Below the pieces are notes generated by a model. That model saw only the letters and a list, made by a program, of their open reading frames with translations, had not been told where the DNA came from and searched no databases. Positions 41,285 through 42,020 of a stretch of 64,000 bases of DNA are shown here, one piece after another. This DNA comes from an uncultured Ruficoccus sp. Its GTDB lineage: Bacteria; Verrucomicrobiota; Verrucomicrobiia; Opitutales; Cerasicoccaceae. The stretch lies in contig OZ223481.1 in NCBI GenBank assembly GCA_965140785.1, forward strand, positions 712,487-776,486. The letters run 5' to 3'. The translations under genes were made by a program, and so were the position numbers. Numbering within the stretch: the first letter of the stretch is position 1; every line of letters begins with the position of its first letter.

Positions 41285-41299
41285 AAGAATATTAGGTCG

Positions 41300-41923
41300 T
41301 TAAAGTGTTTTTTCGTGTTCCTTGTCTAATGCCTCTCGGCCTTTTTTTAGGTGGAGGAGAATCGCGTTTGTGCGCATACCATGAACCCCTCTAGAAAAGC
41401 TTGGATCAGGGCCACCGAACTTAAGGGGGTCTCGGCGCGCTTCGTCCTTAAATAGTAGCTCTCGGAAATCATGGAGTAGAGAGAGTAGCTTGTCCAAGTC
41501 TTCATATTCTAGGGGATCAATGCGATTCCTCCCACACAATGTATCGAGGTCATTGTGGGAGAATATTTTATTTCTCCAAACTTCAATATTTTCTGCCTCT
41601 TTTTCGATTTTATCACGAAGCGCTTTTAAAGCTGTCTTAGATGTCTCGTACTCTTTCGCATTTACAAAGTAATTCAGGGATAGATTTTTGTGCCCTAGTG
41701 TTTTTTCTTTGTCACGCAAACGCGCGATTCCCATTGCGATTGAGTCTGATAATGCATCGCAAATGATATTAAAATCACCACCGCTTATACGATTATAGAG
41801 ATTATAATTCTCTTCACTCTGCTCAGGGTCTTGGAAGAGGGTATGAAACAACTGCCATTGTGACTGCAAGGTCAGTAGCTCGTGTTCAAATATAGCAGAT
41901 AGCTGAGGTTCGATGTCTTCCAT
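41300..41923 (-). CDS. HEPN-domain protein, AbiU2-like (putative RNase), low GC
   Basis: 207-aa helical protein with IARLRD...NLSL and WRNKIFSHND (HEPN-type R..H motif); AT-rich codons; stop 15 nt before the thiC start. Confidence 0.72.
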   Translation of the reverse strand: MEDIEPQLSAIFEHELLTLQSQWQLFHTLFQDPEQSEENYNLYNRISGGDFNIICDALSDSIAMGIARLRDKEKTLGHKNLSLNYFVNAKEYETSKTALKALRDKIEKEAENIEVWRNKIFSHNDLDTLCGRNRIDPLEYEDLDKLLSLLHDFRELLFKDEARRDPLKFGGPDPSFSRGVHGMRTNAILLHLKKGREALDKEHEKTL

Positions 41924-42020
41924 GTGTCCCTTCGTCGGCATTACCCGTATCAGGTTCCTCGGGTCGAAGGCCGCACGTGCCTCCCTCTCAGCCCCGCGCG
42001 CGGAGCCCCCCGTTGTGAGG
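41924..42020 (-). ncRNA. TPP riboswitch
   Basis: Minus strand reads GGGG-CTCCGCGCGCGGGG-CTGAGA...GACCC-GAGG-AACCTGAT-ACGGGTAATGCC-GACGAAGGGA; lies upstream of thiC. Confidence 0.92.

Follow-up and report, generated by a model that had tools for sequence, protein, structure and literature searches.

The 64,000-nt stretch analyzed here (the window; positions 712,487 to 776,486 of contig OZ223481.1 from an uncultured Ruficoccus sp.) carries on its minus strand a thiamine pyrophosphate (TPP) riboswitch aptamer, followed by a low-GC open reading frame (ORF) of the HEPN_AbiU2 family and then by thiC. The features of this locus are listed below in window coordinates.

41909..42022, minus strand: TPP riboswitch aptamer (THI element, RF00059), with P2-P5 present and the canonical P1 absent
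41927..41931, minus strand: AGGGA, the 3' strand of P4 plus junction and, from the sequence, the sole Shine-Dalgarno-like element before the ATG of the ORF
41300..41923, minus strand: HEPN_AbiU2-family gene (PF18734), 207 amino acids (aa), full length, low GC, foreign
41555..41575, minus strand: codons for R117-N-K-I-F-S-H123 (R-x5-H), the HEPN catalytic motif, from a 60-sequence alignment
41285..41306, minus strand: tail of the resident leader (~22 nt, reaching up to thiC), comprising the HEPN stop TAA and a 15-nt spacer, from BLAST to congeners
39368..41284, minus strand: thiC (phosphomethylpyrimidine synthase), 638 aa, the resident riboswitch-controlled gene, from its ORF and congener identity

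On the minus strand, the aptamer terminates in CGAAGGGA (AGGGA at 41931..41927; the same end is also given as GCCGACGAAGGGA), followed by CAC and then by an ATG (41923..41921), which opens a frame of 207 codons that contains WRNKIFSH, stops at a TAA (41302..41300) and leaves 15 nt before the thiC ATG at 41284. A first-pass annotation of this DNA had described just such an arrangement, with an ATG 3 nt after the aptamer end, an AT-rich 207-aa ORF with RNKIFSH and a stop 15 nt before thiC, and every element of it was found in the sequence; the TPP aptamer that it had placed before the ORF was recovered in a covariance search with RF00059 (55.6 bits, gathering score 54.3; E = 3.5e-08 for the window as a whole). 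Sliding composition gave a GC content of 0.375-0.48 within the ORF versus 0.62-0.69 in the flanks, and that of the whole insert was 0.42 versus 0.68 over the first 600 nt of thiC, whose first 200 aa shared 79-88% identity with thiC of four congeners. In a consensus scan of the minus strand, nothing resembling a terminator appeared between aptamer and thiC, and a repeat scan found no terminal inverted or direct repeats bracketing the ORF, consistent with the annotation's report of neither a terminator nor ends of an insertion sequence (IS); no Shine-Dalgarno-like sequence was present in the 15-nt spacer or the leader tail before thiC.

The sharp change in composition at both ends of the segment, within a draft genome of 50 contigs, raised the question of an assembly chimera, in which the assembler would have joined low-GC DNA from another organism. 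An independent Logan contig of 2785 nt from the probable source sample spans 40700..42400 with 0 differences and a uniform depth of 8.6, which indicates that the junctions are real and not an artefact of assembly. With these junctions falling exactly at the start codon and in the leader tail of a functional-looking operon, and with analogous insertions in six other assemblies, a chimera appears extremely improbable. Two further observations concern the sampled population. In a second run of the same study (X2), one identical contig covers 41924..42400, ending one base before the HEPN start codon, and another identical contig covers 40700..41045; 41046..41923 is uncovered and nothing joins the two across the gap. 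The contig end at 41924 may represent a branch point between variants differing in leader content, or a branch that arose in the assembly graph at the edge of the insertion, although missing coverage is in itself no proof. A third run (X3) yielded no contig on this stretch. Separately, the probable source sample contains a low-depth contig of 829 nt, ~87% identical to thiC plus aptamer, with only 171 nt between the positions corresponding to 41225 and 41927, from which it follows that a related short-leader organism co-occurs in the sample.

Identity and origin of the HEPN_AbiU2 gene

The family HEPN_AbiU2 is named for the AbiU2 product of the AbiU abortive-infection locus of Lactococcus lactis. 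By profile and motif, the product of the ORF is a member of this family with an intact R-x5-H motif: it matched PF18734 at 62.5 bits (cut-off 26.8, E = 4.7e-17), with residues 1-156 on profile positions 1-167 of 193, and in an alignment of 60 sequences R117 and H123 (R117-NKIFS-H123) were the sole invariant columns, which bears out the AbiU2-like HEPN designation of the first-pass annotation. Six further residues that are at least 90% conserved among the 60 sequences (W23, L29, R68, D71, N80 and D125) are all present in the window protein. A full HMMER scan of 1.84 billion representatives returned 532 proteins at E <= 0.001 (best E = 1.2e-12), and identity to the homologues listed was 24-41%. 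With homologues of 204-214 aa, the alignments begin at residues 3-15 and reach residues 202-206 (for example, query residues 3-202 on residues 6-203 of 204), almost end to end, so the ORF is complete at both termini. The AlphaFold2 model, built with the 60-sequence alignment, was all-alpha (predicted local distance difference test score 89.3, predicted template-modelling score 0.84).

AbiU2 has been placed in the HEPN superfamily, with R-x4-6-H listed as its conserved motif (Anantharaman et al. 2013, PMC3710099, Table 1), and the window protein resembles the family in its above-threshold hidden Markov model match, its R-x4-6-H motif, its size (about 190-230 aa) and its all-alpha model. According to the same table, AbiU2 genes usually lie in operons with Sel1-repeat proteins or restriction-modification genes. 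The neighbours in the window are instead the TPP aptamer, thiC and a divergent TauE gene. A Sel1-repeat or restriction-modification context is typical of the family, not defining. The window gene further differs from its family in being solitary between a riboswitch and a biosynthetic gene, without a promoter or ribosome-binding site of its own, and its protein shares no more than 41% identity with the homologues listed and has no convincing PADLOC model. NCBIfam and PADLOC scans gave no usable match (only NsnB, at E = 0.0088), and a sequence search of the PDB gave chance matches only (neuroserpin, E about 1). The protein is most likely, to judge from its sequence, an abortive-infection-type RNase that stays latent until triggered, as is thought of Abi-type HEPN proteins (PMC3710099).

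Could the ORF be an inert remnant, transcribed within the leader while its protein is not made or is inactive and its DNA decays as a spacer? Its single occurrence, the lack of a partner gene and the fact that selection is not measurable from one sequence would fit such a view. Against these stand 207 codons that are open from a family-conserved start, a length that is full in comparison with homologues, and the presence of every conserved residue; moreover, if thiC depends on translational coupling (see below), ribosomes must pass the HEPN frame, which would then have to be translated. We rate a remnant as very unlikely.

Several lines of evidence pointed to a foreign origin. In none of 60 relatives, among them the four other species of the genus, was the HEPN protein detected, and a whole-genome family scan picked up this AbiU2 copy alone. 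A word-index search for homologues among 5.8 billion clusters returned only the protein itself, in a cluster of one member on one contig. A phage collection gave no match and plasmids gave three weak matches (29-31% identity), so that no donor was identified from the phage and plasmid searches. Together with the low GC content (0.42 versus 0.68) and the distant best relative, the absence from relatives and the singleton cluster mark the gene, by sequence criteria, as foreign and recent, in line with the horizontal acquisition that had been proposed for it. BLAST against the four congeners located the edges of the insert: homology running through the aptamer ends at 41921 (G002 and G003) or 41927 (G001 and G004) and restarts at 41306 (G002) or 41297 (G003). 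As these breaks coincide with the edges of the ORF, the foreign DNA amounts to about 615 nt, essentially the ORF alone. The HEPN stop codon falls in ACTTTAAC, which is common to G002 but is there in a different frame, so the last ~22 nt before thiC belong to the resident leader; the right-hand joint may have used this 8-nt ACTTTAAC identity.

Known classes of mobile unit were considered and rejected. An integron cassette is contradicted by the mere 15 nt after the stop, with no attC-type imperfect palindrome in 41150..42150 and no integrase-like ORF in 38000..44000, and an IS element, transposon or miniature inverted-repeat transposable element by the lack of repeats bracketing the low-GC segment. 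The sole repeat pair spanning the insert (41168-41184 / 41983-41999, 76% complementary) sits in thiC and in the aptamer core; it pairs a 17-nt thiC stretch (41168..41184, codons ~34-39) with the core sequence CUGAGAGGG at 41983..41999, and this complementarity is probably a chance product of GC-rich sequence. A type II HEPN-MNT module was likewise rejected for the window gene, with 3 nt upstream, 15 nt downstream and no nucleotidyltransferase ORF in the region. Such modules (SO_3166/SO_3165, PDB 5yep; 7ae2) belong to the same HEPN RNase superfamily, and a true HEPN plus MNT pair occupies the equivalent position in a relative (G010, below); the window gene differs from them in having neither an MNT nor any other partner, its neighbours being thiC and the divergent TauE gene.

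The thiC leader in the family and beyond

We compared the locus across 16 Opitutales genomes of the family in six genera, namely the window genome (G000) and 15 relatives (G001-G015). The aptamer is the only TPP aptamer in the 4.36-Mb window genome, and one precedes thiC on the same strand in all 15 relatives, with the aptamer-thiC order kept throughout (48.6-74 bits; 11 of the 15 above the gathering score and four just below it at 48.6-54.1 bits, all with E <= 1.5e-6). The 16-sequence alignment contained 41 invariant columns, every one of which is retained in G000 despite the inserted gene, and 8 of 19 predicted pairs showed compensatory changes, which support P2, P3, P4 and P5; the CUGAGA and ACCUGAU...AGGGA ligand-contact segments were invariant in 16/16 sequences. 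The first-pass annotation had found no convincing P1 helix and had suggested that the insertion may have altered riboswitch function. The first point was correct, with 2 of 5 model pairs standard in the window sequence. The second was not sustained: the family consensus folds without P1 in genomes with and without an inserted gene, and over registers -3 to +3 the proportion of cells that pair across the family was 35-42%, versus 38.7% in shuffles. With no conserved P1 in any register anywhere in the family, including the nine genomes that lack an inserted gene, the insertion did not remove this helix.

The AGG of AGGGA pairs with the CCU of P4 in 16/16 family sequences, and an ATG follows AGGGA at a distance of 0-8 nt in 15/16, all but G004. 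The HEPN ORF, which had been proposed as the first cistron behind the aptamer, does occupy that position and uses precisely this ATG. We infer from this arrangement that AGGGA serves as the ribosome-binding site for the leader ATG; the CCTCC anti-Shine-Dalgarno sequence is present at the 16S 3' end. The window also contains a complete ribosomal RNA operon (16S, two tRNAs, 23S, 5S) at 25475..30709 on the plus strand, ~11 kb from the locus.

The annotation had recommended searching the thiC leaders of relatives for an empty site or different cargo genes, and both were found, in nine and seven genomes, respectively. In the nine (G001, G006, G007, G009, G011, G012, G013, G014 and G015), a short leader ORF of 18-40 aa starts behind the aptamer and ends within -4 to +35 nt of the thiC ATG, the stop overlapping that ATG (ATGA) in G001, G006 and G011 and lying 5-35 nt before it in the other six; none of the nine has a Shine-Dalgarno-like sequence for thiC. 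The frame was open to within 40 nt of thiC in 7/7 independent short-leader lineages, for which the chance per lineage is 0.28-0.51 and the product 1.7e-3. In the remaining 7 of 16 genomes, the slot is filled by longer genes of at least six unrelated kinds.

G000: HEPN_AbiU2 (PF18734, 62.5 bits)
G002 and G003: two homologous proteins (31% identity, E = 4e-8), 155 and 212 aa long, each with a signal peptide and a start at the identical ACACATG, and with weak FG-GAP similarity
G004: 71-aa transmembrane peptide plus a GxxExxY / PD-(D/E)XK_3 nuclease (TIGR04256, 141 bits; PDDEXK_3, 134 bits)
G005: 97-aa ORF of unknown kind
G008: ORF6N-domain protein (103 bits), stop 7 nt from thiC
G010: NTase_sub_bind-type HEPN (97 bits, RNRTAH) plus an MNT-type nucleotidyltransferase (49 bits)

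None of the cargo families examined for this is an abundant repeat in its genome: copy numbers were one for AbiU2 in G000, one for the HEPN in G010, two for ORF6N in G008 and seven matches for GxxExxY in G004. By sequence comparison there are at least six independent acquisitions at the leader slot across the six genera, so that the same aptamer-thiC interval holds different accessory genes in related genomes, as is characteristic of a transfer hot spot. In G010, the MNT-type nucleotidyltransferase (L027, 1197..1541) has no stop of its own before thiC (ATG at 1489) and runs 53 nt into it in another frame, from which it follows that its C-terminus is encoded by thiC DNA.

Three control samples from outside the family were then considered. 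For the order, 151 genomes were searched, 72 of which had thiC, and the best 40 of 65 non-family loci were taken with 1.4 kb of upstream sequence. An aptamer was present in 38 of these 40 (the other two had none even at E = 0.1), and 0 of the 38 aptamer-bearing leaders had a gap large enough for a gene: AGGGA lay 42-99 nt from the chosen thiC start, or 140-250 nt in one family (f2) if a later thiC start is used, which is still too short. An ATG occurred within 8 nt of AGGGA in only 5 of the 38. In metagenomes, a scan for the aptamer 3' motif gave 80 loci out of at least 120 matches; thiC lay downstream in 17 of the 80, with gaps of at most 287 nt, no cargo and no ORF above 67 aa, and the remaining loci were mostly other thiamine operons, with ThiE-, ThiO-, TPK- or binding-protein-like first genes as judged by eye. 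A genus-specific 26-nt pattern had 0 matches in metagenome contigs. Finally, a ThiC-anchored scan of 80 genome-contig loci, which overlaps the order sample, recovered as cargo cases only the known family members G002 (L189), G008 (L190) and G005 (L194); the 12 longest other gaps were thiC N-terminal extensions or unsupported ORFs of 49-108 aa, for which no Pfam scan was run. Two metagenome leaders (L113 and L115) are AT-rich and carry repeated ACAGAATTAACAGAATGGACAAAATG-type units and short ORFs between aptamer and thiC.

Interpretation of the occupied leader

The explanation that we favor, and hold to be reasonably probable, is that a foreign, complete and, by its motif, catalytically intact HEPN_AbiU2 gene replaced the body of a riboswitch-controlled leader frame before thiC and now resides as a passenger in a translationally coupled slot, to be made at low thiamine. 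When TPP is bound, the stabilized P4/P5 and junction would hold AGGGA and crowd the adjacent start codon; the leader frame would then go untranslated at high TPP and thiC would be off through lack of termination-reinitiation, with Rho-dependent polarity on untranslated RNA probably adding to the shut-off. At low TPP, ribosomes would initiate at the leader ATG and then pass on to thiC. Taken together, three features suggest that thiC needs translation of the leader ORF, both for termination-reinitiation and for protection of the RNA from Rho: the ATG is conserved, its frame is kept open up to thiC, and there are overlaps of stop and start codons. Any ORF that starts at the leader ATG and stops beside thiC would fit this layout, and the slot would thus tolerate and express foreign genes that have neither promoter nor ribosome-binding site. 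Thiamine prototrophy would be lost through any insertion that disrupts the frame, and this may act as a selective filter, perhaps with later trimming by deletion; such a filter would explain codon-precise cargo better than a site-specific mechanism, as no signature of the latter was found. The HEPN protein would be made together with ThiC under thiamine limitation, its thiamine gating would be a by-product of the landing place, and its position ahead of a needed gene would make it hard to delete cleanly.

Parts of this scheme have precedents. In E. coli thiC, TPP-controlled translation initiation is coupled to Rho termination (Chauvier et al. 2017, PMC5234074). The locus analyzed here resembles the TPP riboswitches of E. 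coli thiC and thiM in having an aptamer upstream of thiC and, presumably, in start-region control with polarity; it differs in that its aptamer has neither a P1 helix nor a separate expression platform, that AGGGA lies within P4 with a start codon 0-8 nt on, and that control falls not on thiC itself but on a leader ORF or a captured gene that precedes it. The short ORF-11 of class 1 integrons promotes, by coupling, the translation of captured cassettes without a translation-initiation region (PMC8876359). There, as here, promoterless ORFs arrive at a short resident ORF (attI1 ORF-11/ORF-18) that has a good initiation region and would pass ribosomes on by termination-reinitiation. The thiC slot differs in having no integrase, attI or attC and no array but a single slot; the foreign ORF takes over the leader start codon itself, and a metabolite-sensing RNA would gate its expression.

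A number of points weigh against the passenger in a coupled slot, and we gather them here. Transcription, translation and TPP control of the HEPN gene are all things that we infer from sequence; a search for RNA runs that contain this stretch returned none. The switching mechanism is not clear-cut, given an aptamer that is barely over the Rfam threshold and lacks P1, and single-sequence folding of the G000 leader was uninformative (z = 0.32, no alternative structure of note). The family sample is small, consists mostly of draft assemblies and comprises genomes related to one another. The cargo of G004 does not start at the post-AGGGA ATG, the sole exception in the family. Statistical support for the open leader frame is modest: the criterion (within 40 nt of thiC) was chosen post hoc, the other two frames were open in 8 of 14 cases, and a Fisher combination of per-lineage shuffle values gave P = 0.12, a test that is weak here because no lineage can score below about 0.17. 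The structure of the HEPN model was not discriminating either: Foldseek against the PDB returned nothing at E <= 1e-3 and did not single out HEPN, and in the VIA wide fold search HEPN chains (3jrt_A, Z 8.4; 6tug_A and 5yep_B, 7.3; 7ae2_A and 1jog_A, 7.2) came out among unrelated helical bundles with Z up to 10.1, which leaves membership in HEPN_AbiU2 to rest on the profile match and the motif.

The surroundings of the leader count on the same side. Beyond the divergent TauE gene, an orphan 179-aa ORF (43016..43555, plus strand; GC 0.41-0.50) with a signal-peptide-like N-terminus matched nothing in Pfam, and none of the four congeners was found to carry it, so the thiC neighbourhood is variable beyond the leader as well. 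In G001, whose leader is near-empty, a DUF6714 gene (50 bits; L005, 581..1192) lies ~60 nt upstream of the aptamer in the same orientation, an insertion on the promoter side of the riboswitch and not behind it, and G003 has other neighbours. Given this wider variability, some of the pattern may reflect an ordinary horizontal-transfer hot spot. The thiC interval is like the hot spots described by Oliveira, Touchon, Cury and Rocha (2017, PMC5635113) in that one interval receives different accessory genes without recognizable mobile-element genes; it differs in its place within a 5' leader, where a cis-regulatory RNA precedes the gene that it controls, and in its inserts, each of which is a single ORF cut precisely at start and stop codon and would come under the resident regulation. 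Two other features of the surroundings are noted for completeness. An ORF at 37864..38550 (plus strand) consists of two near-identical tandem halves (...ASARHILV...GYHLIEVTAR... twice) and looks, by eye, as if a parvulin-type isomerase-like domain had recently been duplicated within it, and a hairpin with a T-run lies downstream of thiC at ~39279..39310 (minus strand), likewise seen by eye and not listed by the terminator scan.

A sigma-70-like match within the HEPN ORF on its coding strand (41496..41468), a possible internal promoter, also speaks against the coupled passenger and raises the possibility that the insertion uncoupled the system, with thiC driven by signals inside the AT-rich insert and HEPN constitutive or silent. 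AT-rich foreign DNA often creates promoters, the aptamer now lies ~640 nt from thiC instead of ~100 nt, and its score is borderline. However, the two promoter-like matches in the region are at chance level (0.8 +/- 1.0 expected), and the sole TPP riboswitch of the genome keeps all family-invariant positions. Six other family members also keep the aptamer-cargo-thiC order, two of them with a cargo stop overlapping or abutting the thiC ATG, which argues that the arrangement works. Uncoupling seems quite unlikely.

A different question is whether the passenger has a role. The first-pass annotation had offered two: a metabolite-gated dormancy or defence switch, or a selfish gene sheltering ahead of a needed gene. 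The latter is the better fit to the heterogeneous cargo and the restriction to one genome, and on these two grounds we rate the HEPN gene as a passenger and not as a recruited starvation toxin; for the former, no specific support was found. Such a switch, in which thiamine starvation would induce RNA cleavage and hence growth arrest, persistence or anti-phage readiness, draws on the intact R-x5-H and six further family-conserved residues, on the aptamer conserved despite the insertion and on the cargo, of which 3 of 6 kinds are nuclease-type (the HEPNs of G000 and G010 and the PD-(D/E)XK protein of G004), which could indicate a preference. It is set against a gene confined to one genome, with no conserved AbiU2-riboswitch pairing seen, and against other cargo that comprises a secreted protein, a DNA-binding ORF6N protein and an ORF of unknown kind. 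The HEPN of G010 comes with its own MNT partner, like an ordinary toxin-antitoxin module, and the low GC argues for an arrival so recent that there was no time for recruitment. Furthermore, with Abi-type HEPNs thought to be latent until triggered (PMC3710099), induction alone need not act. We consider an adaptive switch of this kind rather unlikely.

The nuclease share among the cargo (two unrelated HEPN families and a PD-(D/E)XK nuclease) nevertheless keeps alive an adaptive reading or one of addiction by position, in which a gene wedged ahead of thiC could not be lost without breaking thiamine synthesis. In its broadest form, which we put forward tentatively and think unlikely, the P1-less aptamer and the coupled leader ORF would constitute a natural one-slot platform for gene capture and expression under vitamin-B1 control, favoring nuclease toxins through addiction by position or through useful starvation-gated nuclease expression.

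Meaning for riboswitch leaders

Riboswitch leaders are usually treated as fixed cis-regulatory DNA that runs straight into the cognate gene, and here a leader has repeatedly taken up unrelated, codon-trimmed foreign genes with the aptamer and the downstream gene intact. In the literature searched, supplements lying outside the search, we found no paper that describes a gene of Abi, HEPN or toxin type lying between a riboswitch and the gene that it controls, and none on a riboswitch leader ORF as a capture site. The components are known (transfer hot spots, translational riboswitch control, leader-ORF coupling); their combination as a recurrent, codon-precise slot for foreign genes deserves follow-up. 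If the proposed mechanism of the coupled slot is correct, a riboswitch lacking both P1 and an expression platform would act through a coupled leader frame whose start codon abuts the aptamer, and annotators would have reason to seek real genes in 'overlong' riboswitch leaders. Transferred genes that lack a promoter would come under metabolite-regulated expression at once, with no integrase involved, toxin and defence genes would be tied to vitamin status, a link not met in the literature searched, and the thiC leader of this family would offer a compact natural design for ligand-gated bicistronic expression.

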